Assembly (NCBI GenBank): GCA_008632985.1
Contig: QPGO01000004.1
Coordinates: forward strand, 682,001 to 746,000
Length of the DNA stretch: 64,000 bases
Direction of reading: 5' to 3'
DNA from: Psammoneis japonica
Lineage: Eukaryota
Shown here: one piece after another, positions 7,930-36,800 of the stretch
Layout: every line of letters starts with the position of its first letter
Position numbering within the stretch: position 1 is the stretch's first letter
Position numbers and translations under genes: made by a program
Notes under the pieces: generated by a model
Told to the model about the DNA's origin: nothing
The model's input: only the letters and a program-made list of their open reading frames with translations
The model's database searches: none

Positions 7930-8380
7930 ACTTTTGTCCTTGCCAATTGGTCTTCAGTGCCACTTCTTTTCCTTGCCGTGCAATCAAGCACTTCACTCTT
8001 TGTGTGGTGAATGTGCTGCTTCTGTTGCAGCCCTTTTCAGCAAGAACACAAGTCATCCCATCATGCCATTTGATTGTTGTCCATTTGCTGCTGCTCCCAT
8101 TGGCTTTTCTGTGCAAGATCTGGCATTGTTTCTGCATGTTGCCACCCACCATCTACGTGTCACTTCTCCAGACTGCTTTTGTCCTTGCCAATTGGTCTTC
8201 AACCCCTCTTCTTTTCTCCACTGTGCAGTCAAGCACTTCACTCTTGTGGTGAATGCGCTGCTTCTGTTGCGGCCCTTTTCAGGAAGAACGCAAGTCATCC
8301 TGTGGTGCCATCTGATTGTCATCCATTTGCTGCTCCCATCGGCTTTTCTGTGCAAGATCCAATGCTGCTTCCACATGCAA
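7930..8380. repeat. Diverged tandem duplication, ~247 bp period
   Basis: ttttgtccttgccaattggtcttca...ggcttttctgtgcaagatc occurs at ~7931 and ~8177. Many of the differences are TG vs CA. Confidence 0.8.
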
Positions 8381-8409: not shown

Positions 8410-9935
8410 AACATCCACAAGGCCCTGCACGGTCTCTGCAGCTCTGGCCTCAGGTGGCATGAACGCTTTGCTGATTGTCTGCTTGCTGAGGGATTCTTCC
8501 TGTGCTGTGCCAAACCCAACATCTGGTTGCACCAGAATGGTGACCACTGTGAACATGTGGCAGTGTGTGTGGATGATTTGGCCCTTGCCATGAAAGATCC
8601 TCAGGCCTTCATTGACACTCTCACAAGAAGCACAGGTTCAAGCTCAAGGGCACTGGACCTCTAGAATTCCATCTCGGCTTCGACTTCTGTCATGACTCTG
8701 ATGGCACACTGTGCATGGCTCCTTGCAAGTGCATTGAATGCATGGTCGAGAATTGTGCGTCACTGTTTGGGGAGAAACCTCACACCAATGCACTGTCACC
8801 TTTTGGGAAGGGAGACCACCCCAAGCTCAACACCTCCAAACTGCTGGAACGTGAAGGCATCCAACACTTCCAATCCCTCATTTTTCCCTGCAATGGGCTG
8901 CAACATTGCCACAGCCATCATGTCCCTCTCCAGCTTCTGTGCCACACCTCGTCAAGGCCACTTGGATTGGGCCGAATGCATCTGTGGATTCTTGTCCAAG
9001 ATGCAACACATGGCACACTTCGAGTGTGCACCAAGGAACCCGATTGTTCAGACCTTCCCAAGCTCATGCATGACTGGGCTCAAACCATGCACGGTGATGT
9101 GAAGGGACTGATCCCTGAAGATGCACCACCCAAGCCCCTTGGCAAGTTTGTCACCACAACACACTGTGTTGACACAAACTTGCTCCATTGCATGCTCGCT
9201 GGATGATCCATCACACTGGCATCCTTCACATCCTCAACAAGTTTCCAGCTGTTTGGTTCTCCAAGAAACAGGCTGCAGTTGAGACCGCAACTTGTGGATC
9301 TGAGTTTGTCACTGCCAGGACATGTGCAGAACAGACCATTGATCTGCGCACCATGCTGCATCACCTTGGAGTCCCCATCCATGACCAATGTCACATGTTG
9401 GGGACAACAAGTTGGTTGTGGACAGTGCCACCATCCTGCACTCTAAGTTGCACACAAGCGACACACGGCCCTCTCATTTCATCGTGTGCCCAAGGCCATG
9501 CCTCTGGTTTCCTTGAGCTCCACTTTGTCGAAGGTTCCCGCAACCCCGCTGACATCCTCAGCAAACACTGGAGATGCTCCCAGGTTTGGAACCTCCTCCA
9601 TCCTCTCATGTTTTGGAACTCTGATCCTGAGGCCTTCAGTGAATCTGATTTCGAATCCATTGCTGTGGACTCCTCAAGCAAACTGGGGAGTGACAGGATT
9701 TGAACAAGATTTTAGTTTGTCACACACAATTGTGTGTGCTCTTGGTTCCGCATGTGACATGCATGATGCAGTTTGCTTTTGAGCCACTCGGCTCACAAGA
9801 ATGACAACAGCAGCACTGACATCACGAACCAGCCTTTTGGCTTCTGCAACGGCATCTGCACGGATGCTCATCTGCTGTTTAGACAGCAGCAAGGAGTTGT
9901 TGTTTTTCTTCACCCAGTCATCTTCAATTCTGTCA
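8410..9935 (+). mobile_element. 5'-truncated Ty1/copia (CoDi-like family A) remnant: RT, RNase H, PPT and 3' LTR (9691-9935)
   Basis: KALHGLCSSGLRWHE, VAVCVDD (=YVDD), KKQAAVETATCGSEF and NPADILSKHW. PPT aactggggag lies directly before the TG..CA LTR. Frameshifted. Confidence 0.9.
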
Positions 9936-11064
9936 CTTCTTGCAACAGCAGCAATGGCGTTCAGAGCTGCAAACCTGGTGAGTGCAGGCACAGGAGCACG
10001 TCAATTGACGGCGATGCACTGGGCTGTGCGCAAAACTGTTTCACCTGCCACCTCTTGTTCGAAACCCAAAATTGGTCAAATTGACATTTTGAGCACACCT
10101 TGCGGCCAAAATTGGCTGTTTTCTTTCAATCTGTTGGTGGACCCATGCAAGAAACAATCAGAAAGTCAATTTTTTGACACAGGGGATTTCCAAAAACTGA
10201 AAATGGACCTGTTCTGCTGATTTTCAAGAAAGGGTCTGCCGGCAGTTCATTTCCTTGTTGCTTTTGGTGCAAACATGCGCAACTGTCAACTGAAAATTCC
10301 ATGTTTTTGACTTTGAACAAGCACTTCCTTCTCACTCAATTTTGCCCGTGGGAGATGTTTGTTCCCCGTGCACAATTTGCACCAGAGACACAGTCGTGGT
10401 GGTCCAAGCGGTTTTGTGTCCAGCACAGCGCAGAAGACGCAAGAAGCATTGCACAGCAAAAAACCAATCGATTTTGGAAACAAAATCGGCTTTTGCACAG
10501 ATGCCAAAAAGCAGAGGACATGCCGGTTTTTTGCTTGTGCCTGCTGCAGACAGCCCCACAGTCCATTGTGAGTCTGTGTTGCACGCGTCGACCGTTTTCG
10601 CGCACGCAGCTCACGGCTCAGTTCAGTGCGAATGAGATTGGGAAGCAAGGTCGCGGATGAATTCGCGGCAAAGGAGCAGGCCCCACGCAGCTACCGGTAA
10701 GCTGCCGTAGACTGTCACACCCTGTATGCCACCGGTGCAGGTGTTCGTATTGTAGTTCCAGTTCGCGGCAAGCCGCAGTTCGAGCTTGAAAAAACATTTA
10801 TTGGACACAAGATGAAGACTTACTGTACTTCTTACTTTTAAAGCATGTGTATTTATTCTTTAATTTTGCGAACATTTATTGGATTAAAAGGCGAAGACAT
10901 ACTTACAGATGTTTGCTTCTGTTGTCGATGCATGATCCAGGCGTGAATCAACTCATCCATCTCCCGTTTCTCACTTTTTCTCTCATTATATCCCGTCTCT
11001 AACAATTGTTGCCATTTTTGTTAAATAACAATAGCATCGACAATTACAAGAGAAACCAAGGAAA

Positions 11065-12920
11065 ATGAAGTTGGCGGCAACAAACATGCTGTTCCTCCTC
11101 GCTATGACAACGACAGGACTCACTAAGGTCTTCGGAGTTGGTGAGAAGGCACTCGGTTTTCCCGAGAACGGGAAAGATCTCCCTCCACAGAAAAAGTCGG
11201 TGGTGGCACAAGGCGCGGCTATCTTGTTTTTAAAACCAGACTCGGGCGGGACATCTTCACCGAAAAACGACATCGACGGAACCCCACCTTTAAAGCAAAC
11301 ACAGAAGAATCAGCAGTGGGTGGACAACTCGATCAAGCCACAGAAAAAAGGAGAACAGGAAAGCAATCCGATCGGGAGTGCATCGAACCTAGATGGCCAG
11401 TCCGTCAAGCCTCCACGCGGTCTAGTGCAGGAGCCAACGAAGAGAGACCAGCAGCGATGCATCATCGCGCGCCCGCACAAGGTATGCGAGCACCAAAAAC
11501 ATAAACCAGAAAAGTTTAAGACATGCAAGAAGAAATGGAAGACCCGGGTAAAATTCTGCCAAGCCCGAGCCCAGCAGGAGGGGGCGAAATGCGAGAACTA
11601 TCCATTTTGTTTCGAGGCCGATTTGTGCTGTCTTTTCAGCAAGCAAGACGCTACCCAAAATCCTCGTCCGACAATGAAGCCAACGTTGACGCCAACAACA
11701 ACGCCGGCCCCCACATGCGCTTTCCCTTGCAAACATTTCTGCATCGACTCGAGTGATGACTGCTGTGGCGAAGCCGGATACTGCGAAGACACAAAGTGTT
11801 GGCTAAACCAATTCGACGAATACAGATGCATTGACTGGAACGCAACTTGTGTGTCTAGCTGCGGCGTGAGTTGTCTCGAAGCAGGCGAAGACTGCTGTGA
11901 TGATACCCATCCAGATCTATCGTGTACGAAAGGGACAAAGTGCTGGACCAATAAGCGAGGATCACTACGCTGCATCCGTCGAACGCCACCGTTTGCTCAA
12001 AGGGCCACTGGTGCTCGCCAGGCAAAACCTGCTGTGGTAACAGCTGTCTCGACAAAGGCGATACATGCTGCGATGATACGACGGGATCCTGGTGCGAAGA
12101 CAGTAAGTGCGTCAAAAACTCAAAAGGAGAGCACCGTTGCATTTCGTGGGATGCCACAGAATGTTCGCAGGATCGTTGGTGTGTGCCGTCGGAAATTTGT
12201 TGCGGATCTTCTTGCTGTCCGGAGGCCACCTCGGAATGCTGCAATGGAAATTGCATGCCCAAGGGGAGCACCTGCTGCCCGTCAGGCGATCACTGTCCCG
12301 CAGACAGGGACTGCTACAAGGGTAAGTGTTTTCCGAAAGGCGTCTCCATATGCCCCAACGACATAAGCTTTTGCAGCAATCTGGAGCAAACATGCTGCAA
12401 GAACCCCAAGACGCAGGAGCTGACGTGCTACAGTCCACGGTGTCCATTGCCCGGCGTGGCGAAGACCGTGCATGTAAAAGGAAGCGAAAATATCTTTTCT
12501 TTTGACTATCCCAAGTTTCACAAATGGTGTAACCTTCGCAAATATCGCAAGGGATGGCGCCTTGTTTGGGACACCACTTTTACCGAGAACATTCCGGACC
12601 AGTTTGAAGATTTGATTGAAGATGCATTGGAAACGGCAGCAAAGGAGTGCGTCATTACGGCAACTCTAAGGTCGGGAGCGGTCCAAGCCGCGAAATGCAT
12701 CTTGACAGTAGGAGCCGGTTGTGCCGAATGGGTGTCCGTTTTTATAATGCTCTTAAAGGAATTCGGCAAGTGCGTTGGGCCCAATATCGCGGACCAGCTC
12801 AAGAGCGACGTTTCAGATTACATTGAGACGGTGAATGATCGGCTAAAGGAAGCTATCCAAATTGAGAGCTACGAAGAGCGCAAGTCGGATATAACTTGTC
12901 ACTGGCCGTGCAGTTGCTAA
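11065..12920 (+). CDS. Secreted cysteine-rich repeat protein (~620 aa if the 1-nt frameshift at ~11977 is corrected)
   Basis: Signal-peptide-like N-terminus and a PT-rich linker. CxxxxDxCC repeats continue in the shifted frame (NATVCSKGHWCSPGKTCCGNSCLDKGDTCCDD) into ORF 12183-12920. TA and Tyr content are normal. Confidence 0.7.
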
Positions 12921-13800
12921 GGAGAAGGATGGACAGTGAGCTAGGTGAGAATTTATGAATTTCACGTGTGCAGGTAAAGGATGTAGCTTGATTGGATGAA
13001 GAAGTAGTGTAAAGATTCGTTGTCCACATATCATATGACTCTATTCATGCGTGGAGGAAGAGCCCAGATCAGCTTCTCCACCACACTGCATGCCGGTTGA
13101 AGGTGAAATAATTTCATTTGACTAAGTCATTCTAGACTTCGAAAGTGGACTGAAGTCGCACATTGGCGCCGTCGATCTAAGGTGTTGGCCCGCCAACACA
13201 CCGCACGCTTTTGTGCGAGTCGTCAGACGAGATTTGAGACTACGACTGCTGAAATACTCAGCTACTCGCTCTCTAGAGAGAGCTATGCCAGAACTAGTAG
13301 TTGGTGGGCTACGGAATGTCCTCATTGCACAAAGTGACGGGACAATAAGTAACAACCCAATGATTTGTCATTTCTCTTCACCAAAATCCACATCAGGCTC
13401 AGATATCATCTGAGTTCGAGAGAATGCATGGAGGAGCAAGGAGTAAACGCCGAAAGCCGACGGTACATACCTGGAATGACTTTTCTGCAGCAACTGTGGG
13501 CGAGCCAGGGTCCTAGCCAGACTAATCTTGGGGGTACACACACAACACACAGTGTGAGCGAAGCAGGCACCGCCGCCATTGTGGATTGTGGAGCCGCGAT
13601 GCGGCATGCGGCCCACGGCGCAGCCTCGCCGGGGAATGAGGCGCCCGCGGAGCGGAAAAAAATGCGCACAGACAACATCCAATAAAAGTACGTTGTTACT
13701 CTGCAGAACCGGCAGCACACATCTTAGGCGCTGTCAAAGCCTGGATTCATGCCTGTGCTGCCTTCTTTCTTGTTTCTAAAGTCTGACCTTGCACTTTGCA

Positions 13801-14230
13801 TCACCACTTGCATTTCCACTTTTTGTTCTTTGCTGAAAGCTGCAAAAACTTGCAAATCTTGGTGCACTTGTGAGTCCCAAAGAAGTCATTCATGCCAGAT
13901 TTTCCCTTGTCTGTTCGACCAAACACCATCCGACGACCAATGGTTGAAGCATGGTGGATGGCAGGGTCAGTCAATTCAAAGGTGGGAGGGGACATTTCAG
14001 TGTTGAAGACACCTTGGAGATCACAAACCATGACCTTTTTGTCCACGCAGCGGTGGGTGAAGTGAGCAAAAGCTTGGAGGCAATTGGAAGGGTTGGTTCC
14101 ACCCCGAGGAGAGAATCTGTTGCGTCTGCTTCTCCATTTTCTGATTCAATGTCTGAGATGTCATGCTCATCAACAAAGGCCTCATCTTCCTTGATGACAG
14201 CACCAAGACCATGGCATTGCTGCTCCTTTT
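13801..14230 (-). pseudogene. Alpha-kinase (eEF2K/MHCK-type) C-terminal domain remnant
   Basis: CLQAFAHFTHRCVDKKVMVCDLQGV...LTDPAIH...FGRTDKGKSGMNDFFGTHKCTKIC matches the alpha-kinase consensus QAFSHFTY..VxDLQGV..LTDP.IH..FG.xDxG...FF.xH.C..xC. Frameshifted, and truncated by the copia fragment. Confidence 0.8.
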
Positions 14231-14234
14231 GGAG

Positions 14235-17200
14235 CTGAAAAAGGCACACAAGTCACCCAACCCGGCTCTCAACTTACATCGCCACAACAAACCCATCACC
14301 ACTGACACTGTGTGTTCCAGCACTCCTGCCATCAACTCTGTCTGCACCAGCACACAGCTCTTTGTTGGCATGGAATCACTCATCACCGATGTGTGCAGCA
14401 ACATGATGGACAAGGAATTTGTCAACACCCTCAAGACAACATTCGCAACCGTGGTGCTCCAGCCAAACTCATCAGCAATTGTGCTCAAGTTGAGATCAGC
14501 AACAAGGTTCTTGGCATCCTGCATGCTCTCTTATCTCCAGCCAATGAAGCAAGCCCCATCAACAGCATCAGAACTTTGCTGAGCACCGCCACCAAACGTG
14601 AAGAACATGGCCAACACCATCATGGATCGCTTCGGCTCCCCGGGCCCACACCTGGCCACTTGCCCTCATGTGCATGTGCTTCTTGCTCAACCACATGGCA
14701 TCTGCCAAGCTCTGCTGGCACCTCCTGCCAAAGTGATGTCTGGCTCTGCTCTCACATCAGCCCCCTCCTCCGCTTTCAATGATGGGAACCCGTGTGCTGC
14801 CATCTGGATGACTCCAACTGGCCGTCTGAATCTCCGAGTTGTGCAGTGCTTTGTTGGCATTGCTGAACATGTGGGCCATCAAATGACCTTCAAGATTCTC
14901 TCCAATGACACTCAGAAGATTCTGCACTGGTCTGACATCTGCTCTGCCACCGGCGAACCATCAATGCACAACTTGCATCTTGGTCCTCCTGATGGGGAGT
15001 CTGCTGAAGAGATTGCCGATTCATTAGATGGGGAGGAGATCAGGATGTCCAAGATGCCAGTCTTTGACCCCAAGGACATTGTTGGATGCACCTTCCTCAT
15101 GAAACCACAAGAGGGTGGACAATGCTGCAGAGCCCACATTGTCAAAGCCCAAGGACCACAACTGGGAGATCAGTGACAACCTGGACCTCGTCAAGTTCAT
15201 TTGTTCAGTCAGCAATGATGAATGTGAGGAGATCCTTGCCTGCCATGACATCATCCATCACATGGAGCAGGAAGAAGATGACACCACCATCTGGAAATTC
15301 TGCTGCATTGTGTCACATGAAGGACCGTTGAGACCTCATGACCACTCCTGGAAGGGCTCAAGCTACAATGTCATGCTTGGATGGGAAAGTGGGGAGATCA
15401 CGTCTGAACCCCTTGCCATCATTGCCAAGGATGATCCAGTCACCTGTGCCATCTTGCACGTGAGCATGGCCTCCTTGAAACTGATGGATGGAAGAGTTTT
15501 TGCAAGATGGCTCTGCATCAGAAGAAGCTGTTCCGCATGGCCAACCAAGCCAAGCTTTGCTTGTTTTGCACTGCACCATGATGCAAGTGTGGGATGCGAA
15601 GTGCCGCAAACCAAAAGCATGCCTTGGCCCTCAACAAATGCAACAGAAACGCAAGTGGGGCGATGCAACGGACCTCAGATGACTCAAATGGACAAGTGTG
15701 AGGTCTTCCACAATTGTGGGCACTGCAAGGACTCCAATGCCCCAGCAGGACACAAGAAGATCCGGGGCACCTGGGTTGTCAATGTCAAGCATGACAGCAG
15801 GCACAAGGCACATCTTGTTGCTGATGGACATCTCACCAACACACCATCAACAGCATCTGTTCTGGTGCAGTGTCTCCATGTGATCTCCAAATGATGATCT
15901 TTCTGGCTGAACTAAATGAGCTGGAGACATGGGCAACCAACACTGGCAATGCTCACTTGGAGGCTGCGACCAAGGAGAAACTGTGCATCATTGCAGGCCC
16001 CGAATTTGGAGATCTGGAAGGACACATCCTCGTCATCCACAAAACCCTGCACGGTCTCCACAGCTCTGGCCTCAGGTGGCATGAACGCTCCCTGATTGTC
16101 TGTGAGCTGAGGGGTTCTTTCATGTGTGCCGAACCTGACATCTGGCTGTGCAGGAATGGTGATCACTGTGAATGCGTGGCAGTGTGTGTGGACAATCTGG
16201 CCTTTGCCATGAAAGATCCCCGGGCCTTCATTGACACTCTCACAAAGAAATGCAAGTTCAAGCTCAAGGGCACTGGGACCTCCAGAGTTCCACCTTGGCT
16301 GCAACTTCTGTCGTGACTCCAATGGCACACTGTGCATGGCTCCTTGCAAGCACATTGAATGCATGGTCAAGAATTGTGCATGACTGTTTGGGGAGAAACC
16401 TTGCACCAATGCACTGTCACCTCTCGAGAAGGGAGACCACCCTGAGCACAACACCTCCGAACTGCTGGAACCTGAAGGCATCCAACACTTCCAGTCCCTT
16501 GTGGTTCCCTGCAATGGGCTGCATCCCTTGGACGCATTGACGTTGCTGCAGCCATCATGTCCCTCTCCAGCTCAAGTGCTGCACCTCGTCAAGGCCACTT
16601 GGATTGAGCCAAATGCATCTGTGGATTCTTGTGCAAGATGCAACATGGTGCACTGCAAGTGCGCACTGAGGAACCTGATCATTTGGACCTTCCCAAGCCC
16701 ATGTGCAACTGGACTCAAACCATGTGCAGTGATGTGAAGGAATTGATCCCTGAAGATGCACCCAAGCCCCTTGGCAAGTTTGTCACCACTGCACACTGTG
16801 TCAACGCAAACTTGCTCCATTGCATGCTCACTGGACACTCCAACACAGCATCCTTCACATCCTCAATGAGTTTCCAGTTGATTGGCTCTCCAAGAAACAG
16901 GCTGCAGTTGAGACCACAACTTGTGGATCTGAGTTTGTCACTGCCAGGATGTGTGCAGAACAGATCATTGATCTGTGCACCACACTGCATCACCTCGGAG
17001 TCCCCACCCGTGACAAATGTTGCATGTTCAGGGACAACAAGTCAGTTGTGGACAGTGCCACCATCCCGCACTCCAAGTCACACAAGCAACACACTGCCCT
17101 CTTGTTCCATCATGCACATGGGGCAATTGCCTCCGGTTTCCTTGAGCTCCACTTTGTCAAAGGTTCCGCAACCCCGCTGACATCCTCAGCAAACACTGGG

Positions 17201-17566
17201 GATGCTCCCAGGTTTGAAACCTCCTCCTTCCTCTCATGTTTTGGAACTTCAATCCCAATGCCTTCTTTGAATTTGACCTCAAATCCATTGCTGTGGACTC
17301 CTCAAGCAAACTGGGGAGTGACAGGATTTGAACAAGATTTTAGTTTGTCACACACAATTGTGTGTGCTCTTGGTTCTGCGTGTGACGTGCATGATGCAGT
17401 TTGCTTTCAAGCCACTGGGCTCACAAGAATGACAACAGCAGCGCTGACATCATGACACCAGTCTTTTGGTCACTGCAACAGCGTTTGCATGGATGCTCAT
17501 CTGCTGTTTAGACAACAGCAAGGAGTTGTTGTTTTTCTTCCACCCAGTCATCTTCAATTTCTGTCA
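14235..17566 (+). mobile_element. 5'-truncated, heavily degenerate Ty1/copia (CoDi-like family A): integrase, RT, RNase H, PPT and 3' LTR (17319-17566)
   Basis: KSPNPALN..TDTVC..QLFVG, FVGIAEHVGHQMTFKIL, VKHDSRHKAHLVADGHLT, VAVCVDN and VETTTCGSEF. PPT ctggggag. Many frameshifts. Confidence 0.92.
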
Positions 17567-19194
17567 ACTGCTCAGAAGTGTCTCTTTCCAAATTCATGCG
17601 TGCATTGTGGAGTCAAGATGCCCAGCTGCAAGGGCAAGCAATGGCTTTGGGGAGCACCCGGCAATCTTGAAGTGCAAAACTCATGAGCTTTCTTGTTGGC
17701 TTTGGGCTCTCATTGCCTTCAATGCTCTTGGTTGATGACACTTTGACAACCACTTTGTGAAAGGCCTGAGACAGGTTCTGAAGCTCAAGACAAACCAACA
17801 AATCAACATCATCTTTGCCAACAGGAGTTTGTGTTGAAGCAATCTCTTTGCATCTTGCTCTCTTGCATCCATGACATGTGCTGTCATTGCTGAAACACAA
17901 AACTTGCCCTTTCAAGTGACCTCCTTCCGTCTGTCACAATGCACATCACATGCCCTGTGCATGTGTTGGGCGCTGAAAAGAAGATGTGTTGCGACTTTGT
18001 CGTTGTGAAAATTGTGAGCTAGTTTAGAGCAGAGAAAGTGGGATCGTGCAAACAGGGAATCTTGCCAAATCCCCATTCGTTTGCATTTGGATCGCATCAA
18101 ATCGATCGTGCGTTCGCATCATGGATCGTGCGAATCAAGCCATCACGTGCCATGCACGAGTGACGTCATCGTGTGGAATCATGCTGCCATTGTGGGCCAG
18201 ACGACGGGCCAGTGTGCTTCACACGGATGCTCTCTCAGCATCCTTCTGGAATTTCCTAAGACCTGGAGCCACGCCCTCCTGTGGTCATGCTCCCCAGGTG
18301 CGCGTTGACAATGCTGCGTTGTCACGCACAAGAGGCTCATGCACGGTCTCACCGTGTTGTCCAGCAGCGAGGCATGCTGCACACAAAACTCTTGGATGAT
18401 GAGTCAAGTGTGATCAAGATTTGGTGACACAGTGTTGCCACAGCTTCCACATCTGTCTTTTGCATGTTCTTTGGCGAGATTTTGACAATCAGATCTTGTC
18501 TGTTTTGTTCTCTCCATTTCAGGCATGCACCACATCTTGCAACAGCTGCTTTCAATGCGCTTGGTCCACACAGGCAAGACACAAATGGACTTTCAATCAA
18601 TCAACCACTGACAGTTGGAACACACAGCTTTTGCACAAGTTGCGCCCACACAGTTTGATCTTGATGACATCTTGATCCCTCAAGTTGATGCCACTGGACA
18701 AGCAGCACTCTTCAATTGGCTTGCATGTCAAACTTCCCTCCAACATTTCAAGACAGATTGATGTCATTTCAACTGAAGGCAGTGGTTTGCTTCAATGTGT
18801 TAGATGCAAAAATGCTGTCTTTGTCACACACCACTTTTCTGTGCGCAAGCACCCACCAGTGCAGCCCCTGCATGTGTTTCTGTGTGTGCTCTTGTGCAGA
18901 TGTCACCCTTTTTAGACTGCGCTTTGCTGGGTCCCCTGACACCCTTTTGGCCCCTTCTGCCATTGGTGCACCCTCATTTCACCATGATGTTGCATGATCA
19001 TGTGCAATGATTTTCAGTGGAAAACGACTGGCACTGACGCCTCATGGCTTGCATGCTTGTTGTCTCATTTGGTGATTTTTTGCAGATTTGGTGCAGTTTC
19101 TCTACACAGAATCTAGCACAAATTCTGCGTGCTTCAGAAATGTCCACCAATGATCACAATGTCTTCGATGCCATCAAGTTCCATCCATGCCTGA

Positions 19195-22100
19195 TGACAG
19201 AAATTGAAGGCAAATGGCAAGAATTCAAACAACAACTCCTCACTGCTGTCTAAATGGCAGATGAGTCTCCGCTCAGAGACCGTTGCAGGAGCCGAAAGAT
19301 GCGCAGGTCAGTGCAATCGGGCTGCTGTTGTCATTCTTGTGAGCCTTGTGGCTCGAAAGCAAACTGCATCGTGTGCGAACGCGCGGAACTAAAGCACACA
19401 AAACTGTGCGCGGCAAACTAAACAGCGCGCGACATTTTGCGCGCACCCAAATCCTGTTCAAATCCTGTCACTCCCCAGTTTGCTTGAGGAGCCACAGAAA
19501 CAGATTCGATTTCGGATGGAATGAAGTTCCAGAACATGAGGGGGCGGAGAAGGTCCCAGATTTGGGAGCAACCCCAATGCTTGCTGAGAATGTCAGCAGG
19601 GTTGTGGGAGCCTTCGATGAAGTGGAACTCAAGGCAACCAGAGGCAATTGCCTCGCGCACACGGTGGAACGACAGTGCGGTGTGTCGCTTGTGTGGCTTG
19701 GAGTGCGGGATGGTGGCACTGTCTACAACCGACTTGTTGTCACCGAACATGCAACTGACACCACGGATCGGGACGCCAAGGCAGCGCAGGGTGATGCGCA
19801 GGTCGACAATCTGCTCGACACAAGTCCTTGCGGCAACAAATTCAGACCCGCAGGTCGCAGTCTCCATGGTGGCTTGCTTCTTAGAGAACCAATCAGCCGG
19901 GAATTTGTTGAGGAAGTGGAGCATTCCCATGACAGAGCGTCCGGTGAGCATGCAATGGTGCAAGTTTGCATCGATGCAGTGGGTGGCAGTGATGAACTTG
20001 CCAAGGGGCGGTGGAGCATCCTTTGGGATCATCTCTTCTGCTTCGCCGTACACGGAATGCATCCATTCACAGGCCGGAGCAGGGAGATCCGAATGGTCGG
20101 GCTCTTCCGTGCGAACGCGGAGAGCGCCATGTCGCATCTTGGAGAGGTGCCCACAGACGCGTTTGGCACGATCCAAGTGGCCTTGACGGGGTGCAGCTCG
20201 GAAGCTAGAGAGTGACATGACGGCCGTGGTGATGTCAATTCAACCAAGGGACACTGCCCATTGGAGTGAACCAACAAGAGACTGGAGCTTGTGAATGCCA
20301 TCGGGCCCCAGCAGTTCGGAAGTGTCCAGCTGTCGATGGGTACGTCCGTGAGGTGCCCATCGGCTACGACTCGTGCCTTGTGGCGACCGTCGTGTTTCAC
20401 GTCGTACACCAGGTGCACTCGGATCTTCTTGTGTCCTGCAGGAGGAGTGGAAGACTCGAAGGGCCCGCAGTCATGGAAGACTTCGTATTCCTCGAGTTGG
20501 TCCATCTCGAGATTAGTTGCGTCTCCCCATTTGCGGTTGCCGTTGCGTTCGTCTAGTGACATGGCGTGTTTGTGGTTCCGGGGAACTTTGCATCCGCACT
20601 TGCAGCGAGGTGCAGTGTGGAAGGAGCGAAGCTTGGCTTGGTTGGCCATGCGAAATAGCTTCTTCTGGCGCCTCGCGATGGTGCGGAACCGCTTCCAGCC
20701 ATCAGTGTCGAGAAGTCCATTCTCTCGTGCATAGATGGCGCAGGTGACGGGGTCATCCTTGGCGATGATGGCAAGAGGTTCGGACGTGATCTCCCCACTT
20801 TCCCATTCAAGCATGATGTTGTAGCTTGAGCCTTTCCAGGTTGGGTCATGAGGCTTCAGAGGTCCTTTGTGTGACACGATGCGTCAAAATTTCCAAACAG
20901 CAGTGTCTTCGTCTTCTTGCTCAATGTGATTCATGATGTCGTTGCAGGCAAGGACTTCCTCGCATTCATCATTGTTGACAGAGCATGCGGACTTGGTGAG
21001 CTCGGGATTGCCGTTCACTTTCCATTCATGGTCTTCGATGGCCTTGACGATGCGAGCTCTGTGGCGTTGTCCGTCCTCTTGTGACTGCATGAGGAAGGTG
21101 CGTCCGATGATGTCTTGTGGATCAAAAACTGGCATCTTGGGTGTCCTGATCTCCCCATCAGGAGAATCGACGGGGTTGTCATCATGGCGAGATTTGATGA
21201 TGGGTTCAGGTGGCTCCCCATCAGGAGGATCAAGATGCAGGTTTCGAACGGCAGGATCGGTGGCAGCGGATCGTACGTTGGACCGGTGGAGGATCTTCTG
21301 AGTCTCGTCAGAGAGAATCTTGAAGGTCATCTGGTGGCCGACGTGCTCAGCAATGCCAACAAAGCGTCCACGCAACTCACGGGATTTGGACGGCCAATCG
21401 GAGTCATCGAGGTGGAAGTGCACGGGTTCCCACCAGTGAAAGCAAAGCAATGGGCTGATGTCCGGGGTGGAGCCAGTGAGAGTCTCGAGGGGCGTGTGCC
21501 AGTGGAGATGTGGGGACGCTGCATGGTTGAGTGTGAAGCACACGTGCATGAGCGCCAGCAGCCATGTGTGGGCAGGCGAACCGAAACAATCCATGACAGT
21601 GTTCGCCATGCACTTCACGGTCTGGTGTCGACGCTTGGCAAAGTTTTGGTGTTGCTGGTGAGGCTCACTTTGCCAGCTGGAGATGAGGAGGGCTCGTAGA
21701 ATCCCGAGCACCTTGTTGCTGATCTCAACTTGAGCACGGTCGCTAATGAGTTTGGATGGGGCACCACGCTCACGGATCTGATCCTCGAGTGTGTTGACAA
21801 ACTCTTTGTCCGTCTTGGTGCCGTGGATGTCAGTGACGGTAGACTCGGTGCCAACAAACAGTTGGGCGCTGGTGCAACCAGAGTCGACGGCCGGGGTGTC
21901 GGCACAAACGGTGTCAGTGGCGACAGGCTCGTTGCAGCGGTGCACATTAAGGGCGGGGTTGGGTGATTTGCAGGCCTTCCTAAGGTGTGTGCCGGCGGGC
22001 ATGCGGACGCACTGCGTGGTGCAGTCAAAAGTACGATGGACCGCATCGGCAGGTAGGAAGCCAAAGTGAGGCCGAAGAGACTCGAAGGGGGGGTCCTTGG

Positions 22101-24799
22101 GCTGCACAGTGCGCTCCGGGGGCGGAACGTCGTCGTCCTTGGGGTCAATCGCGTGTAGATGACACTCGTAGAACACGTCGTCGTTCGGGATGAGGTGATC
22201 ATCGAGGGCGGACGCGTGATTGGCAGACAAGGAAGTGGACATGATGGTCTCGTTGACAATGACACGATGACGGCAGTTGCCGCACTCGTCAAACAGGTTG
22301 GCAGTGGGATCGTCCTGCAGGTCAGAGATCGCGTCGCACCACTGGTCGTCATCAGTGACAGAGTGATCGAGGACGGAAGGATCCCATGTGTCATCACCAG
22401 TGAGGATGACATGGGGCAGGGTGTCCCATTCGGCGTCAGTGTGAGGTCGCATGGCAACACAAGGCAGGCCGCCCTTGATGTCAATGGGGATGACACAGCC
22501 ATCAGGAGTGGCAGTGCGTTGCAAGCCATTGGGCACCTTGACAGAGCAATCGTTGACATCCTGTTTGCACCATTCGAGCTGGCCGCAGGAATGAATGGTC
22601 TTGCCCTTGCCCGTGCATGCGCACTGATGGAGGATGGCGATGACGGGACCACGCTGGGTCTCAATGACGGCACCAGCGGCGACAATGGGGATGTCCACCA
22701 ATTGATGGTCGTCAATGCCCTGAACGTCGACTTGGCGAGAGGTGCGTGCAATGACGCGAACGTCGTCGCCAGCAATGCCGCCGTTGGCCCCACGATCGAC
22801 TAGAGCACCAGTGCGGGTGGAGCGATGAGCAGAGGCAGAGCAAATGACATTGTGGTCATTGACGCGGCGGCAAGTGCGGCCGTCAAGTTCTGTGTCATCG
22901 GCAGGAGCTGGCAGGGCAGAGGGAGCGGCGGATGGCCCCGGTCGGCCAGCGTTGGGGGCTTGGTTAGGAGACAACAGACGTTGCAGATCACCGGGTGGCA
23001 GTGGCTTGCGCTTGGTGAGGTGCGCCAGGATGGGATTGTCCGAAGTGGCATCCACATTTGGAGCGGATTCACCAGAGTCAGCAGGAGTCGTGTTGGACAA
23101 GTTGACATCACCGTCACTCCCAAGGCGTTGGTCGTGAAGGTTGGCCGTAATGGACTCATGGCAGTTGCTGGCTCGCGGGTTGCGGGGAGGCGGACGAGAA
23201 TGCTCAAGGATGATCGCCTTGGAGGAATGGGGCAACGAATCCCAAATCCGTTGGTGGTCGGGAGGGAGACGTTTTCATTGGTCACCGGTGAGGCTGGGAC
23301 CACGGGTGCAGGCAGCATTGGCCTGAAGGACATCAATGTCGCTGTCAATGTCGCAGAACACATCGTCAGACGGTTCCTCGGAGCAGACGTTGTGTGCGCA
23401 CATGGCACGTCGGGGAGCTCGAGGTGTCGTCTTGGGTTGAAACGCACTGTCGCATTGAGCCGCCGCGGAGAGGAGCAAGCCACAGTGTTGATCGCATGTG
23501 AGGCTCTTGCCACTCTGCGTGCGATGCTGATCAGCTTGGTTCTTGACAGCACGGAGTTCCTCGACAGGGTGTGCGGCATTCTCGAGCATGACGCGCTTCT
23601 GTCCTTCAGAGAAGTGGTCACTGGCCGGGATGAGTGCCTCGCACTTGCGCAACTGATCTTGCCAATGAAGGATGAACCCGTGGGTCGGACCTTTCCAAGT
23701 GCCATCACCAAGACGTGCGGTGGTGAGGTGCGTGAGCAAGGTGGAGGACTCGATGGATGCGCGGGTGGAGGCAAGCGCATGCTCAGACAAGGCGCGGTGG
23801 ACAGTCTGGGCATCAGAAGACCCCACATTTTCGCGAATGAGAGCCTTGCCCTTGTCGGTGAGAAGGATGCATTCGAAGATGGCGAACATGCACTTTTGCT
23901 GTTCAGCAAAGAGCAGTTTGTCTTCGGGGCTGGTCGGTTTGTACGACGAGTCTAGAATGCACTCGACGTCTTGGGCACGGGCTTGTGCCACAAGTGAGGT
24001 GTGCCAAGTGTGCCACTGCTTGTCGGATTTGAGAGCCGTGAAAGCGGTGGGGTCACGCTTGATGCCTCGCTTGAAGTCTCGCACCGGGTCGCGTGCCTTG
24101 GTCGGGTTGGTGACATGCGGAGGTGCGAGGGGTGAGCTGCCGACGGACACAGAAGACATGCAGTCGGGGCTGAGGCGGTGGGCAAGGAACTCGTCATGCG
24201 TGAACAATGAGGAGTCATTGGCAACGTCAAGACCTTCGTGTGCTTTGACAATGTACAGACTGACTAGAGCTGCTAACATGTTCTTATAACCGCGGGGCAA
24301 AGGGACCACATTGGTGCCGTTGTCGCACTCAAGCGAGTCGATTTGGGACGGCATGAACATGAACAGTTCTTGATGCGAGTCCGTGCCGTCTTGGGCCAAA
24401 GCCAAACGAAGAGGGCTCCCAGCACCTTGGGCAAGTGCGGTTCCAACAACGTGCTCAAAACCATCGGTTTGTTGCTGACGAGTGAGAACCATGGTAGACA
24501 AAAGTGGTGTCAGAACAAGAATCTGACAGAAATTGAAGGCAAATGGCAAGAATTCAAACAACAACTCCTTGCTGCTGTCTAAACAGCAGATGAGTCTCCG
24601 CTCAGAGACCGTCACAGGAGCCGAAAGACGTGCAAGTCGGCACAATCGGGCCACTGTTGTTGTTCTTGTGAGCCTTGTGGCTCGAAAGCAAACTGCATCG
24701 CGCGCGAACGCGCGGAACTAAAGCACACAAAACTGTGCGCGGCAAACTAAACAGCGCGCGACATTTCGCGCGCACCTAAATCCTGTTCAAATCCTGTCA
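19195..24799 (-). mobile_element. Ty1/copia (CoDi-like family A) with both LTRs (19195-19470, 24524-24799) and 5-bp TSD CCTGA; RT core deleted
   Basis: 276-bp TG..CA LTRs. CCTGA at 19190-19194 and 24800-24804. PPT at 19471-19480. Domain order gag, protease (LVDRGANGG), integrase, RT, RNase H. Confidence 0.97.
19480..24492 (-). pseudogene. gag-pol polyprotein pseudogene of the 19195-24799 element
   Basis: ATG at 24492 (MVLTRQQQ). ORFs 23275-24654, 20884-23235 and 20029-20877 share one frame, broken by TGA at 23275 and 20884. Deletion junction at ~20330. RNase H lies in ORF 19418-20218. Confidence 0.92.
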
Positions 24800-24804
24800 C
24801 CTGA

Positions 24805-27800
24805 AAGCCCCCAACAATTTCTTTTGCTCCTGCTGGCCACTCAAGTTCTTCACCTCATGTGGTGACAGCACTGTCCCTGTTGTGACACTTGCAAGTGTTT
24901 GTTTGGACAAACCATTGGCGTCACTTGACAACTGTCCATTTGCTGCACAGATTGGCATTTCCAAGCAAGATTCAGTGTCAGCTCTGCTTGTGAAAAATCT
25001 TTCTTCCAATGACCTCCTCCTCATGTCACCAAGGCTTCCCATTTCATGCCTGCTGCAAGTCCTGAACACCCCCTTTTCTGCCTGCTGGCCTGCCAAGATC
25101 AATCCTCCAAGCAGCGAGCTGCCCACTTTTGTTCTGGTGCATGCAAATGTGAAACTCAGCCGGTCTTTGTTGAAGACAAGAAGACCCATCCTCAGAAGCA
25201 AGGTTTTTGTCCCAGAGTTTGTGCTGACTTTGAATTCTCTGCTCAACATGATTGTCCTTTGCACTGGTGGTTTGGGTGCATTAAATCCTCTCTGAAAGAA
25301 AGCAATGACCTCACTCTTGTGAAATTTCTCCTTCACCTGTTGTCCCCGGTGCGCGTTGTTGCAAAGCTGTGCGTTGGCCAGTGGCTGATTGCATGAACTT
25401 CTGCCACACCCCTCACAGGGTGTGCCAGACATGTGGGTTGGCTGGTGCCAGTGTTGCTGGGCAAAGGTGCAACAGCACTTAAAATTGGGTTTGAGTTTTT
25501 TAAATCTTTGTTGCACACTCTGCAATTGACATGGTTGATGAAAAAAACAGTTGCACAAGCAAGGTCTGGCACTTGCTCCACATTTTGTTTTTGTTGGCCG
25601 GCATGACCCTGGCAAACCCCGGGATGGGCTGAAGGTGGTGTGGACAAATGGCCACTGTGGTTCTTGCTGTGTGTGGCAACACCCAGTTTTGCATTGAACA
25701 GATCCCCAAAACACTCTGTGGTGCATGCAGCCACAGCATTGTCTCTGCACATGCTGACAGGTGCACAGAAGACCAAGTGAGCATGCAACCATCTGTCTTT
25801 AGATGGGGGTTTTAGGCTGGGCAGGCACAGCCAGCACACCGCAGCAGGTGCAGTCACACCACACTGGGCTGCGCAGCAGCCAAATGTGTGCATGGCATGC
25901 CGGGGTAGATGGGGACATGGTGGAGCAATAGAGGGACTCCATTTTCATTTTTCTCTGTTGGCCCACAGAAAATCCAGCACTGGGCATGGCATTCACCACA
26001 CAGCATGTGAATTGCTGCAACTTTTTGCACCAGATGCTCTTGCACCACCACAACCACACACTCTTGTGAGAAATTTCCCATGCAGTTGGGTGCATCTTTT
26101 TTTTCTTGTTGTGATTGTTGCGCCGGACCAGAGCTCTGGAGCGGCACCCAGCAAAGAATTTGTGCAGTTGGGCCAATGTCACACTGTTGTCTTTGCAACT
26201 CCAGCAACAAAAGATGTGGAGAGAGCAGCTGCAAAGGACAATTGTGGCACCCAGGATGCAGCTGAAAAGGAAGAAGTGGTGGCAAAGGGGGCCATGACAT
26301 TTCTGAGGAGGGAAGCTCTGGACAAGCCCCGGCACACATTTGTCACCACAATGGTCTCACAGAGCTTTGATCTGGTGCAGCTCCCAAAGTCAATGACTCC
26401 TTCACATGCCTGAGCTGGAGTCAGTGTGAAAGGCACTGCAGCACTTTCTGAGCTGGCGTCCCTTGCTGAGAAAAGCCTGGCACTGTGTCCTCAGCACAGG
26501 GGAGGCATGTTGCAGCCACATCAAAGCCAAGCCAGAGCACAGATATGTGGTGGTGAGTGATGCATTGGGGTGGTTCTGAGAGATTGGTTGGTGCCACCAA
26601 AGAAGTCACTTCAAGAAGATTTTGAGAGTTGTTGCCAAAAATTTCAAAGCAACAACAAACACTTTTCTTGATCTTGTGAACGGGAAGTTCAAAGACCATC
26701 AATCTGATTCTGAAAAAAAATGTGGACATGCAGCACTGGCCTTCAAAATGTGCTGGAGATTGCAATGAGGAAGAGCAGCATGCTGCATTGTTGCCGCGGG
26801 CAGCTGGCAACTGGCACTGGACAGGAAATCATAAACTTGCAACAACCTGCAAAACATGATGACATTTTACAAGATTGCTCATTGTGCTGTGACTCTTTAA
26901 CCTGAAAGGTGAATCTGCACACCAAGCCATGCAAAAATTGTGCTTTTTGTTGATCAAGCTGTTGTCTGTTGCCACGTTTGAGTGAACTGGTCATGCAGTG
27001 CTTGAAGGTCCGGATGTTTTCAGATGCTCTTGAAACCTTGGTGCTGGTCTCAACAAGAAGCTTTCAAACTGCAGCAGCTGCAACACAAACTCCAGCTCTC
27101 TGGGAACATCATAGAATGCTTTTCAGCTGTGAAGGCAACAGCTGTGCCAACTTTTTGTGTGGAGGAATTCACAGGTTGGCACAAAAGATGAGCAATGGGA
27201 CTTTGGTGAGACCAAAAGGAAGGAGCAGTGGTTTGACATTGCTGAAAATGAAGGATGCTGCTTTGCAAATGACCAAGCAGTTGGGCAAAACATGGGGACG
27301 TGCCAACAACAAAAGCAATGGTCAATGTTTCATTGATGACAAAAATTCTTTTGTCAGTTCAGCAGCATTTGGAGTCTCTGGTTCTCTATGAAATTCTGCC
27401 AATGAACCAAAAATCATTTTCCAAGGACTTTGTCAATGCACTCAGTCCAAATCAGAGAGCTGTTTGTCAACAAATGAAGCAGGGAAAGATTGCTGGAATT
27501 TCCTTGGTTGAGAACAAAAAAGGCATCATGTGGTCTTCAGCACAGCCCTGTTGGCATCCTTGTGAAGTTTCTCCTGAGATCTGCAAAGCCTTTTTGTGCA
27601 TTGGTTGGGAAATCATCCTGACACAGTGCAGTTGCCCAGCTCAAGAGACATGACTCTCATTGAAGATGAAGATGGAAGCAAAAAATGAGTGAACAAACAG
27701 TTGCACAATGTGTCTGTGCATCAGCTCCATGACAACAAAATGTTGAAGCCTTTGGGTTCCAGTGGATTTGAATTTGCCTGTGATGCAAATGGCAAAACCT

Positions 27801-33800: not shown

Positions 33801-36800
33801 ATGCCATTGTCCAAATCATCACCAAGATCCTTCCTGCTGCAGCACTCACAATGAAAAACACAATCACGCTGCCATGAATGTTGGACTTCTTCTTCAACTC
33901 ACTCCATTTAATGACCAGATCACAACACAGCTTCTTGTCCACCTGCTTCCTCCAAGCACCTTCTGACATGACAAAATGATGGCTGTGCATTTCACACCAA
34001 TTCTTGATCCTGTGATGGGGCACTCTGTGTCACACACAAACTTGAGGTGCAGTCCCTTCAATGCCAAAATGTCAAATTTGTTCTTCTTTCCTCCTGACAG
34101 TGTCTTCACTCTCCAACAGCTGTCCAACATGATCTTGCCAAAAAGCAGCCATGTGGCATTTTTGTGTTGCGGCTTGACTTTTTGGGTTTGCACTTTTCCA
34201 AATCACCAATGTTGACCCAGCTTCTTTCTCCACAAATTTCAAACTTGGCAGAGCCAACGTGACTCTCAAAGTGTGGCTTTTTTGTCAAGTGGTTCATCCC
34301 AAAACTCAGCATCTCTGTGCATCACAAAGGTGTGGGTGACATGCTCTTTGCTGGAATGAGGCAATGCCAGAACAATTCTGGAGCTCATTGGAGTGCAGAT
34401 GGCTCCTTTGCACACACAGTGCAAGAGCATTGTCTCCATCATTTTCAACAAGCTTCTCTCACTCCCAGGCAGTGCTTGCAGGCTGCTTTCAAGTCTGAGT
34501 GTTGAGATGTGGCATCCACAATGTTCTCAAAACCCAACACTTCCTTGCAATGGGGCAACAGTGTCTTCTGACAATGAAGAAATGTGCCCCATTTGTTGTT
34601 CATGCCAAAAGAAATGGGTTGAACAAGTCCAATTAAAAAAGACAAATGCCGCAATTGGACAGCATGATTGTCCATTGCCCCAAGAATTGTCAAAAGTGAA
34701 AACTTTTTCAACACAATCAACAAGCAAACCAAGCACAGCATGACAAAACAGCAGCAAGATGTTTGTTCATGGTGTCTCTGGCTGATCAACATTCCTGGTG
34801 GCACCAGCACCAACAACATCAACATGTTGTTGTTCTTGTTGCCCAGACATTTTGCAATTTGTGGTTGATTCTCAGGGTGAAATTCTTCAACAAACCAGTT
34901 GGCAGCAACAATGCTGTGGAGTGTTTTTTTTGTTTGATGGATGTGAGCCCATCCACACCATTCTTGCGATGAACAAGGTGAAATTGAAGGCTGGCCTTTT
35001 TGGCTCCAGCATTTTCTTCTGTGGTCAACTTGCTCAACTGCACAAGACCTTGTGAGCATGTCTGCGGGGATTGATTGCAGTTGAGAGACATTGCTTGTGC
35101 CAAGTTTTTGAGACACCCTGCTTTGATGATGTTCATTCATTTGATCAATGAGCCTCTTGACTTGAGGGGACATGCACCTTCGACTGGCCAGAACGGCGCT
35201 GCCACCAGTGGAAGACTCTGCCACCCTTTGTCTTGTCTTTGCAGCTGCTGCAACTGGCCTGTCCATTGCAGTTGTGCTGATTGTGTGCTTGTGTTTGCGC
35301 ACAACAAATGCACTCCACAGAGGGGGCTGACATCAACTTCCACAAAATTGAAATGGATGAACATGGGCAGCCTCCAAGGCAGCTCCAGATGACAAATGCA
35401 GGACACTGAGCATCACAGCAAACAAACCAAAACAGGAATGCTGCCAGTGCCTGACTGCACACTTGTGCTTGTTTGACAACTGCACTCTAGAGAGGGGTCA
35501 ACATCAGTCACTGCAAAATTGAAATGGATGAACATGGGCAGCCTCCAAGGCAACTCCAGGTGACAAATGTAAAACACCCTGAGTGTCACAGCAATCAAAC
35601 AAATTGTTGTTCAAGATGACTTCACCTCTTGTTTGGAAGCCATTGGGGCAAACAAGAGCATGACAGAAACTCAGAACAAATGATGGAAGCAACCAAAAAA
35701 TGACACACACAGTGTCTGCGCCTCTTGCATGAGGGACACCATGCAACTTTGACAGCACAAAGTGCAAATGTGAAAATGTGAAGAGACGGGGTTGTCCACA
35801 ACAAAAGTGACTTTGTGGAGTCACCACATCATTCTCAGAAGTTTTTGTTGCACAGTGCTCTCAAGGTCCAAAACAAAACCAAATTGCTGGGCATTGTTGA
35901 TGCATGTGGTGCCAGCCACCAATCTTCTTGCTTGTCTTGGCCCTCCAGCCAATGCAAATGCAGCAGAGCTCAAAAGTGGTCCACAACTGTGTGTGCTGGC
36001 ACATGGCCCAATCTGCTTTTGTGCAGCTTCCAGAGTGCACTGTTGTGGACAATGTTGGTTGGATGCATGGTTGGGTGACAAGTGTGGGAGTCAAAGGTGT
36101 GAACAGGCCTTCTGGCCTTGCACACATGCCTCCTGTGGCCATGAGTGTGAACATGCTGGAAGCAGCTCTGCAGCAGCACACTGATCACAGTTTGAACAAT
36201 CAGCATGAGCAGGGCCTGTGCCATGTGAGGCATTTTCTTGTTTTTTGTGGTCCAGATGTTTGCCAGTTTCCAACTCTGTGAACCTGCTGTGTCAGGGTGG
36301 GCAGGGCCAGCAAGATGCAAAGTGCAGGCACTCACTGGGTTGCTGCAGCCAGGAGCTGGGCTGGCTGGCAATGTTGGTTGTGCCAGCTTGTGCACTCCTG
36401 GTCACTGCTTCCTTGGATGTGCCCTCAGAGAAAGCAGGCTGGCATCTGGTTGAGGATGCCTGTGAGGAAAGTTTGGCTGTGATGGCATGGCCCATTTTTT
36501 GAGTGGTCACTTGTTGGTGTTGATGTGCATGGCCACATGGCACCACTTGTGCTTGCACCGGGGTGACTGCCAATGTTGTTTGGAGCAATTCCTTGTTTGG
36601 TGAGTCCTGCAGCTTGGACTCTGGCATCCTTTGTGACTTTTTGGAGATGTTGGCATTTTCTGGATGACAGTGCTTGGCTCCATTGGCAGGAACAAAGAGT
36701 GGCTGTTCACTGATGACACCCATCTCATCACAAGGAGCAGTTGATGGGTGGGTCTTGGAGGAAGGGGTGGTGGTTGCAAGCACATGGTGCAGGAGGGCAC

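Follow-up and report, generated by a model that had tools for sequence, protein, structure and literature searches.

In Neurospora and other fungi, repeat-induced point mutation (RIP) makes TpA from CpA or TpG by C-to-T change, typically CpA to TpA, with a rise in TpA and a fall in GC content, and it depends on duplicated sequence, passage through the sexual cycle and an enzyme of the RID type. The present analysis concerns the opposite signature in a non-autonomous copia-type long terminal repeat (LTR) retrotransposon of Psammoneis japonica. The element, analysed as 19195-24799 plus its flanking duplication, lies in a 64-kb window (64,000 nucleotides; contig QPGO01000004.1, positions 682,001 to 746,000), and all coordinates below are those of this window, the whole stretch of DNA that was analysed. 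Like fungal RIP, the process recorded here is a transition-only, dinucleotide-specific hypermutation of repeated or mobile DNA, which kills coding capacity and inflates the divergence between copies. Unlike RIP, it destroys TpA by A:T to G:C change, and the repeats, with observed/expected (o/e) ratios of 0.03-0.15 for TA and up to 2.0 for CA+TG, lack the composition that marks RIP. Methyl-CpG deamination also yields TG and CA, and it has been active both in the element (six single CG changes, three CGN arginine codons) and in older repeats, but it cannot remove TA, and the TpA process outpaces it here by a factor of about 10-20.

The closest described case is the chlorarachniophyte Bigelowiella natans, for which Mettrop et al. 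(bioRxiv 10.64898/2026.01.13.699255) report a hypermutation that is restricted to TpA and affects giant-virus and virophage DNA integrated in the genome. In this type, the de novo rate in resident DNA is raised and varies episodically from line to line. According to the main text of that preprint, mutation-accumulation lines acquired de novo TpA to TpG/CpA changes at ~6 × 10−7 per site in integrated virus DNA, the baseline mutation rate being 3.5 × 10−10, and the proposed chemistry is adenine deamination at TpA to inosine, with an ADAT2-like candidate. The signature found here matches this TpA hypermutation, a kind known from that single preprint: A:T to G:C transitions only, at TpA only, giving TpG or CpA by strand, confined to foreign or mobile DNA, with TpA depletion and CpA+TpG enrichment in clustered 1-kb windows. 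The preprint also describes reverse-transcriptase (RT) domains as enriched among TpA-depleted genes. Unlike the rhizarian B. natans as described there, the host here is a diatom-like stramenopile and the process has struck LTR retrotransposons and entire blocks of repeats; depletion is deeper, at TA o/e 0.03-0.15 compared with a Rho of 0.45 in the nucleocytoplasmic large DNA virus (NCLDV) region of B. natans, and the process is known from its fossil record, not from de novo events. The words 'diatom', 'LTR', 'context' and 'flanking' have zero occurrences in the preprint's main text; therefore, the order relative to CpG decay, the consequence for LTR dating and the resistance of YTAR sites (Y, pyrimidine; R, purine) are not part of that text. 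Literature searches returned fungal RIP papers and this preprint only, with no printed report from a diatom in the library searched, and the portions of PMC9998398 and PMC9258296 that were consulted hold nothing on TpA loss in diatoms. New here are the saturated reciprocal stage, the order with respect to CpG decay, the extent to which LTR dating is biased and the YTAR context effect.

Since the coding strand of the element is the minus strand, the LTR at 19195-19470 is its 3′ LTR and that at 24524-24799 its 5′ LTR. Both start with TGACAG and end with CTGTCA, they are 93% identical, and a 5-bp duplication, CCTGA, encloses them. Ungapped alignment of the two (276 columns), with mismatch classes counted by script, gave 20 mismatches, all of them transitions. 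Six reciprocal TG/CA dinucleotides were found at LTR columns 47, 61, 90, 118, 129 and 138, together with six sites of CG against TG or CA (five CG/TG, one CG/CA), one TA against CA (column 254) and one AG against AA (column 112); matching dinucleotides were 17 CG/CG and 3 TA/TA. The original prediction, aligned by hand, had claimed a perfect target-site duplication, about 20 mismatches without transversions and exactly these class counts, all of which the script and the flanking letters bear out. When 20 transitions were placed at random 200,000 times, five or more reciprocal sites appeared in none of the placements and zero in 77%. Both strands were changed within each LTR (4 TG:3 CA and 2 TG:4 CA), and along the 3′ LTR the reciprocal outcomes run CA, TG, TG, TG, TG, CA, the six sites being too few for a strand-coherence test. 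Recombination between two elements was also considered as the origin of the LTR pair and is ruled out by the perfect duplication.

The explanation that we regard as very likely to be correct is a post-insertion, chromosomal change of TpA to TpG or CpA in a copia element inserted once, running ahead of CpG decay. The changes have the properties of a TpA-directed A:T to G:C hypermutation, in which both strands are hit and TpA becomes TpG or CpA by transition, and the locus demonstrates a process that is TpA-specific, two-stranded, post-insertion and transition-only, confined to repeats, dependent on context and faster than CpG decay.

The ancestral state of the six reciprocal sites is central to this reading. 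CG to TG or CA is the textbook source of TG/CA pairs and six single CpG changes occur in the same LTR pair, so the reciprocal sites might be a fast-decaying CpG class (e.g., fully methylated), changed on opposite strands in the two LTRs, with the scarcity of TA an older property of the family. The low CG o/e of old repeats (0.04-0.3) and the fate of column 160, which is CG in both young LTRs and TG, CA and TG in older copies, would fit such a class. However, the 17 intact and six single sites give a decay of p = 0.15 per CpG allele, which predicts 0.265 reciprocal sites, whereas six were seen (P = 3.8 × 10−7). A one-rate CpG model including the reciprocal sites was rejected (G = 12.6, P = 4 × 10−4), one rate fitted the CpG classes once these six were removed (P = 0.49), and methyl-CpG decay is thus not the sole, one-rate cause. 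The six reciprocal sites and the TA/CA site were in turn fitted by a TA class with p = 0.96. In addition, intact CpGs at columns 76, 87, 99 and 124 are interspersed among the reciprocal sites, the one at column 87 only 2 bp off. Each LTR holds 3-4 TA against an expectation of 15-16, and 18-22 CG against one of ~18; TA ancestry brings the TA o/e back to ~0.6-1.0, while under CG ancestry the original CG o/e must have been ~1.6-1.9 and the low TA content of the LTRs (o/e ~0.25) has no explanation. Moreover, family contigs read T at column 129, and with Cys or His in place of 15 of the 22 conserved Tyr residues the element could not have been active. We consider a fast CpG class very improbable, and an ancestral TA rather than CG at the six sites is supported, in line with the ancestor that had been proposed.

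Three LTR-like relatives in the window, ~75-80% identical to the LTRs (7380-7625, 9690-9945 and 17320-17570), provide further cases. Column 196 is TA in both young LTRs and TG, CA and CA in the three older relatives, a direct case of a TA that ends as a reciprocal pair. Columns 92 and 171 are TA in one old copy and the same CA or TG in the two young LTRs, as expected of hidden TA sites that changed in the same direction. An imperfect hairpin was noticed by eye in columns 43-71 (19237-19265 and 24566-24594), with reciprocal sites 1 and 2 in its arms (CTGCTGT/ACAGCAG), which pair perfectly in the 5′ LTR; two of the three older relatives match the combination of the 5′ LTR at these sites and one matches that of the 3′ LTR. 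The hairpin as an explanation, with alternation between Watson-Crick and G-T pairs, was dropped, since TA decay gives the same pattern.

Other copies of the family were read from contigs of one public sample (one study, four runs, X1-X4) placed at 80% likeness. The family is very abundant, with 11,347 contig pieces placed in run X1, and letters were available for 40 of the 517 differing places. At 24652 (column 129, where the 5′ LTR has CA), 46 contigs of X1 read T, at 70% of the depth there, and T takes up all of the X2-X4 depth. The next position, 24653, has no row among these 40 places, and adjacent pairs elsewhere give two rows at shares of 0.15-0.28; most family copies would then read TA at column 129. 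The original prediction had held that CG in the family at the six reciprocal sites would refute it; this state was readable at one of the six, column 129, where the T speaks for TA. A contig loose end at 19363 reads ACTACATCGCGCG, with TA at column 171 and CG where the 3′ LTR has TG. At 21264/21265, T is found in 17 contigs and G in only 11. Over the 40 places, the family letters restore CG at eight single sites and TA at five, and four adjacent pairs are reciprocal. LTR copies were also sought by two degenerate patterns in metagenome, viral and genome contig collections, with zero matches.

With regard to timing, reverse transcription copies both LTRs from one template, and differences between twin LTRs post-date integration. 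The perfect duplication indicates a single insertion, and given a single insertion with LTRs from one template, the LTR differences would have arisen in the chromosome. This post-insertion origin, reached by standard retrotransposon logic, agrees with what had been claimed. The alternative is that the changes pre-date integration, through RNA or cDNA editing (ADAR- or APOBEC-like) or reverse-transcriptase error. The losses of internal Tyr codons described below give by themselves no timing relative to insertion and leave room for it, and animals are known to edit A to G in double-stranded RNA, preferentially after a 5′ U, work to which the B. natans preprint refers (bioRxiv 10.64898/2026.01.13.699255). 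However, besides the established biology of the LTR template, editing of a single-stranded intermediate would change one direction only, whereas both strands were changed in each LTR, and non-transposon old repeat DNA near the element shows the same TpA signature. An origin before integration is therefore extremely unlikely.

The distribution of the mismatches, 0, 16 and 4 in columns 1-46, 47-139 and 140-276, raises another possibility, namely that columns 47-139 are a gene-conversion patch from another, independently hypermutated copy of this very abundant family. The signature would then be the same, and the twin-LTR clock would fail. Contigs in which columns 106-136 are exchanged for other letters do exist. 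On the other side, the candidate TA sites themselves cluster in columns 47-139, the 3′ half consisting of CG runs, with its TAs in the resistant CTAAA, and beyond the patch there are further CpG singles and the TA/CA site (columns 178, 180, 244 and 254). Moreover, the transversions or indels expected from a diverged donor are missing, while older pairs have a transition:transversion ratio of ~5:1. Conversion is judged unlikely, and a post-insertion change of TpA in each LTR is retained.

The rate order was obtained from two sets of sites. Among LTR alleles, TA was lost in 13 of 20, and in more when hidden sites are counted, compared with 6 of 46 for CG (P = 5 × 10−5). In the coding region, three frames were compared with 57 homologs of at least 1000 aa. 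Conserved Tyr was retained in only 4 of 22 columns, the rest having changed to 10 Cys (TGY), 5 His (CAY), 2 Phe and 1 Trp, whereas conserved Arg was retained in 40 of 45 (36 CGN and 4 AGR codons) and other conserved residues in 428 of 506. Of the five Arg losses, three were of CpG type (two CGY to TGY, one CGT to CAT); the remaining two were other changes. Loss of TA in Tyr codons (15/19) thus exceeded that of CGN in Arg codons (3/39; Fisher P = 8 × 10−8), with a ratio of ~19 on the -ln scale. Similar behavior was observed for the 796-aa frame against 80 homologs, where none of 10 Tyr columns but 19 of 22 Arg columns were retained, and in the RNase H/C-terminal part, where conserved Tyr was retained in 1 of 8. 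The lost Tyr codons showed no significant bias in direction (10 TGY to 5 CAY, P = 0.30).

These rates affect dating. The Kimura two-parameter (K2P) distance over all LTR columns is 0.078, while the 210 columns left after removal of CG, TA and reciprocal sites contain 1 difference, i.e., 0.48%, with a wide 95% interval (0.012-2.6%) since it stems from a single difference. Divergence is inflated roughly 16-fold, again a figure drawn from that single difference outside the hypermutable dinucleotides. With the B. natans rate as a stand-in, the LTR pair would be a few million generations old and the long-term rate at least ~5 × 10−7 per susceptible TpA per generation, both to an order of magnitude; the rate is a lower bound because the TpA class is saturated. 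On this reading, the TpA process saturates at a background divergence of ~0.5%, when CpG loss is ~13%. These data bear on three earlier claims. They support a TpA loss faster than CpG deamination, in LTR alleles and codons alike, and an overestimate of age by LTR-divergence dating; near saturation applies only to TAs outside YTAR contexts, whereas YTAR TAs survive and do not follow it.

The composition of the element and the window is consistent with this order. The element contains 41 TA (o/e 0.15) and 388 CG (o/e 0.89), confirming that CpG is abundant and TA nearly gone, and its mass balance shows an excess of CA+TG of ~305 against deficits of ~232 for TA and ~48 for CG. Over the whole window, TA o/e is 0.25 and CA and TG are each at ~1.5. 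When the 64 one-kb bins were classed by TA and CG o/e, 20 were high in both (the genes at 46-61 kb, and others), 34 were low in both (old repeats, TA o/e 0.00-0.12 and CG 0.02-0.50) and four were intermediate. Only six bins were TA-low and CG-high, exactly 19001-25000, the element, and none was TA-high and CG-low. In 40 of the 64 bins, TA o/e fell below 0.25 and CA+TG o/e reached 1.3-2.0, while the stretch at 46-61 kb that carries the Tub, C2/Copine and Membralin genes kept TA o/e 0.33-0.78 and CG ~1. Since older repeats lack both dinucleotides and the element lacks TA only, TpA loss comes first and CpG decay later, and the element is a snapshot of the stage in between, with TA lost and CG still present.

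The end state of decay can be seen in two older pairs of repeats. The direct pair 8412-9935 and 16034-17566 is 86% identical, with 148 transitions and 29 transversions (CG/CG 4, CG/x 36, TG/CA 33), and the inverted pair 37325-38098 and 43919-43145 is 87% identical over 778 bp, with 82 transitions and 14 transversions (CG/CG 6, CG/x 16, TG/CA 26). The members of the direct pair are 1.5-kb copies of the 3′ end and LTR of a related copia family, ~73% identical to the element; they and a third LTR-like piece at 7380-7625 are in the late stage, with TA and CG both gone.

The surviving TAs revealed an effect of flanking context. In hypermutated bins, 84 of 165 retained TAs lie in YTAR, compared with 151 of 792 in normal bins (P = 4 × 10−16), CTAA/TTAG making up 46/165 and 66/792, respectively, and RTAY 14/165 and 216/792. 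Retained TAs in hypermutated bins are enriched 3.3-fold for CTAA/TTAG, 2.6-fold for TTAA and 1.7-fold for CTAG, and depleted to 0.09-fold for ATAC/GTAT and 0.25-fold for ATAT. The TpA process spares YTAR and prefers RTAY. All four surviving TA sites of the LTRs are CTAAA, and YTAR accounts for 4/4 of them and 0/6 of the reciprocal sites if these were TA (P = 0.005), a comparison that is not fully independent, as the class was found after the LTRs had been seen.

Several points weigh against the reading of post-insertion TpA change. A one-rate TA model (three intact, one single, six reciprocal) is also rejected (P = 0.002), and TA ancestry needs a resistant TA class, identified post hoc from the window-wide context. 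At five of the six reciprocal sites the older relatives read TG or CA only and give no polarization, the sixth falling in a poorly aligned stretch, and column 160 shows that a CpG can also end as a reciprocal TG/CA given time. The family evidence at column 129 concerns one of six sites and depends on an absent row among 40 of 517 places, and 16 of the 20 mismatches fall within columns 47-139, where a conversion patch is conceivable.

After the single insertion, TpA sites would have been turned into TpG or CpA, depending on the strand hit, by a chromosomal process that struck each LTR independently. Changes on opposite strands in the two LTRs would give TG against CA, as at the six sites, and changes on the same strand would be invisible in the pair. 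The process would have come near completion for TAs outside YTAR, while about one CpG allele in eight decayed. The chemistry could be deamination of adenine to inosine at 5′-TpA-3′, read as G; since TA is self-complementary, attack on T is indistinguishable from attack on A, and a thymine-directed attack would fit equally well. The process may be targeted to silenced or repeated DNA, and it may have a defensive role.

If this reading is right, the LTR pair is an internally timed record of a TpA-erasing process at work on chromosomally resident DNA, and since TpA loss runs ahead of CpG decay, the process is not a by-product of slow methyl-CpG decay. We lean, with only modest confidence, towards the view that diatoms have a repeat-directed mutator that converts 5′-TpA-3′ to TpG or CpA on both strands, with YTAR resistant, at least 10-20 times faster than CpG decay, inactivating new insertions first, and that together with Bigelowiella this would amount to a widespread genome defence in the stramenopile-alveolate-rhizarian (SAR) group. 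If so, TpA editing in SAR would be the mirror image of fungal RIP, and LTR-divergence dating would be invalid in these genomes. If the main reading of the LTR pair holds, the range of the signature extends from a rhizarian alga to the retrotransposons of a diatom-like genome, any candidate enzyme would have to reproduce the sparing of YTAR and the stronger effect on RTAY, and published insertion-age landscapes would be skewed wherever the TpA process operates (raw 7.8% compared with 0.48%).

The features of the element are collected in Table 1. Direct LTRs, TG...CA ends and a short target-site duplication identify it as a Ty1/copia LTR element, and homologs bearing PF07727 are collinear with it over 23937-20329 and 20338-19529, with integrase before RT as in the copia polyprotein. 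In diatoms, Ty1/copia retrotransposons are named 'CoDi' elements; this copy shares their integrase-before-RT order, 5-bp duplication and TG...CA LTRs, and unlike them it is hypermutated and without ~195 RT codons. A search with part of the 796-aa frame (residues 330-796) yielded 486 proteins at E ≤ 0.001 among 3702 candidates, many of them with PF07727 (RVT_2). Among the 120 matches listed, the species named are Fistulifera solaris and Cylindrotheca closterium, one match is labelled as a Bacteroidota metagenome-assembled genome and two are MMETSP transcripts. For the neighbouring Tubby-domain gene (52914-55226), the nearest atlas cluster occurs most often in Bacillariophyta, and a diatom host is likely. 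The top match has only 59% identity, and therefore the intact form of the family is absent from the protein collection.

By tblastn, residues 26-891 of homolog P0018 aligned with 22887-20329 and residues 1087-1356 with 20338-19529, so that homolog residues 892-1086 (P0018) and, likewise, 1026-1220 (P0004) have no counterpart in the element. Since both homologs share the same gap, ~195 codons of the RT core are missing, and the element is a non-autonomous copia-type retrotransposon in minus-strand sense with its RT core deleted. A Pfam search of the four long frames of the element returned zero families at 1 × 10−3, in keeping with the loss of the RT core and the many mutations. At 20330, contigs of other family copies continue with letters unlike this copy, and these copies seem to keep the RT segment deleted here; two such contigs, with loose ends at this junction, differ from each other by TG/CA alternation. 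Judged by eye, the minus-strand run GGGGAG is compatible with a polypurine tract and with an element in minus orientation, and beside the 5′ LTR no convincing tRNA-complementary site was recognised.

Table 1. Positions of the element's parts, of the informative LTR sites and of a neighbouring gene in the window.
Feature	Position	Strand	Basis or counterpart
Target-site duplication, left copy, CCTGA	19190..19194	.	Read in sequence; same as 24800-24804
3′ LTR, 276 bp; TG...CA ends, 6-bp terminal inverted repeat	19195..19470	-	LTR-pair alignment
Short purine run GGGGAG, polypurine-tract-like, abutting 3′ LTR	19471..19476	-	By eye
RNase H/C-terminal part of copia polyprotein	19529..20338	-	tblastn, residues 1087-1356 of homolog P0018, 64% identity
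Internal deletion junction (~195 codons, RT core removed)	20329..20338	-	tblastn gap in P0018 and P0004
RT region, N-terminal part	20339..20883	-	Open frame, homolog alignment
Protease-integrase region, 796-aa open frame	20884..23274	-	Homologs, many with PF07727
Gag-like region reaching 5′ LTR	23275..24523	-	Open frame; homolog P0040 aligns as far as 23937
5′ LTR, 276 bp	24524..24799	-	LTR-pair alignment
Target-site duplication, right copy, CCTGA	24800..24804	.	Read in sequence
Reciprocal site 1, columns 47-48	19241..19242 (CA)	.	24570-24571 (TG), LTR alignment
Reciprocal site 2, columns 61-62	19255..19256 (TG)	.	24584-24585 (CA), LTR alignment
Reciprocal site 3, columns 90-91	19284..19285 (TG)	.	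24613-24614 (CA), LTR alignment
Reciprocal site 4, columns 118-119	19312..19313 (TG)	.	24641-24642 (CA), LTR alignment
Reciprocal site 5, columns 129-130	19323..19324 (TG)	.	24652-24653 (CA), LTR alignment
Reciprocal site 6, columns 138-139	19332..19333 (CA)	.	24661-24662 (TG), LTR alignment
Retained TA, half-completed TpA change, CTAAA context	24777..24778 (TA)	.	19448-19449 (CA), LTR alignment
Tubby-domain gene (neighbouring gene)	52914-55226		

The element inserted once, into already-old repeat DNA. Contigs join its left flank to its right flank without the element, by joints that skip 5656-5829 bases, and therefore the flank itself is a repeat with insertion-free copies. In a joint from 19156 to 24804, the 37 letters in between correspond to window positions 19157-19194. 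One insertion-free copy of the flank has CCCAA at the target site, where CCTGA stands on both sides here, which is another TG/CA alternation.

Some other parts of the window depart from their surroundings. A near-normal island at 10001-14000 (TA o/e 0.28-0.55, CG 0.74-1.03) lies between two hypermutated related copies and holds a 443-aa open frame (11035-12366). Pfam searches of four frames of the island, including this one, gave zero families; the island may represent a gene that was spared, or else an insertion of very recent date. Conversely, 61001-62000 is a lone hypermutated bin (TA o/e 0.08, CG 0.26) within an otherwise normal gene region. Another direct pair is formed by 37056-37242 and 45474-45660. 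Short tandem-like direct repeats of ~245 bp and ~171 bp were also observed in old hypermutated DNA at 7903-8334 and 35323-35577, respectively, and their copies differ mostly by TG/CA/CG alternations.

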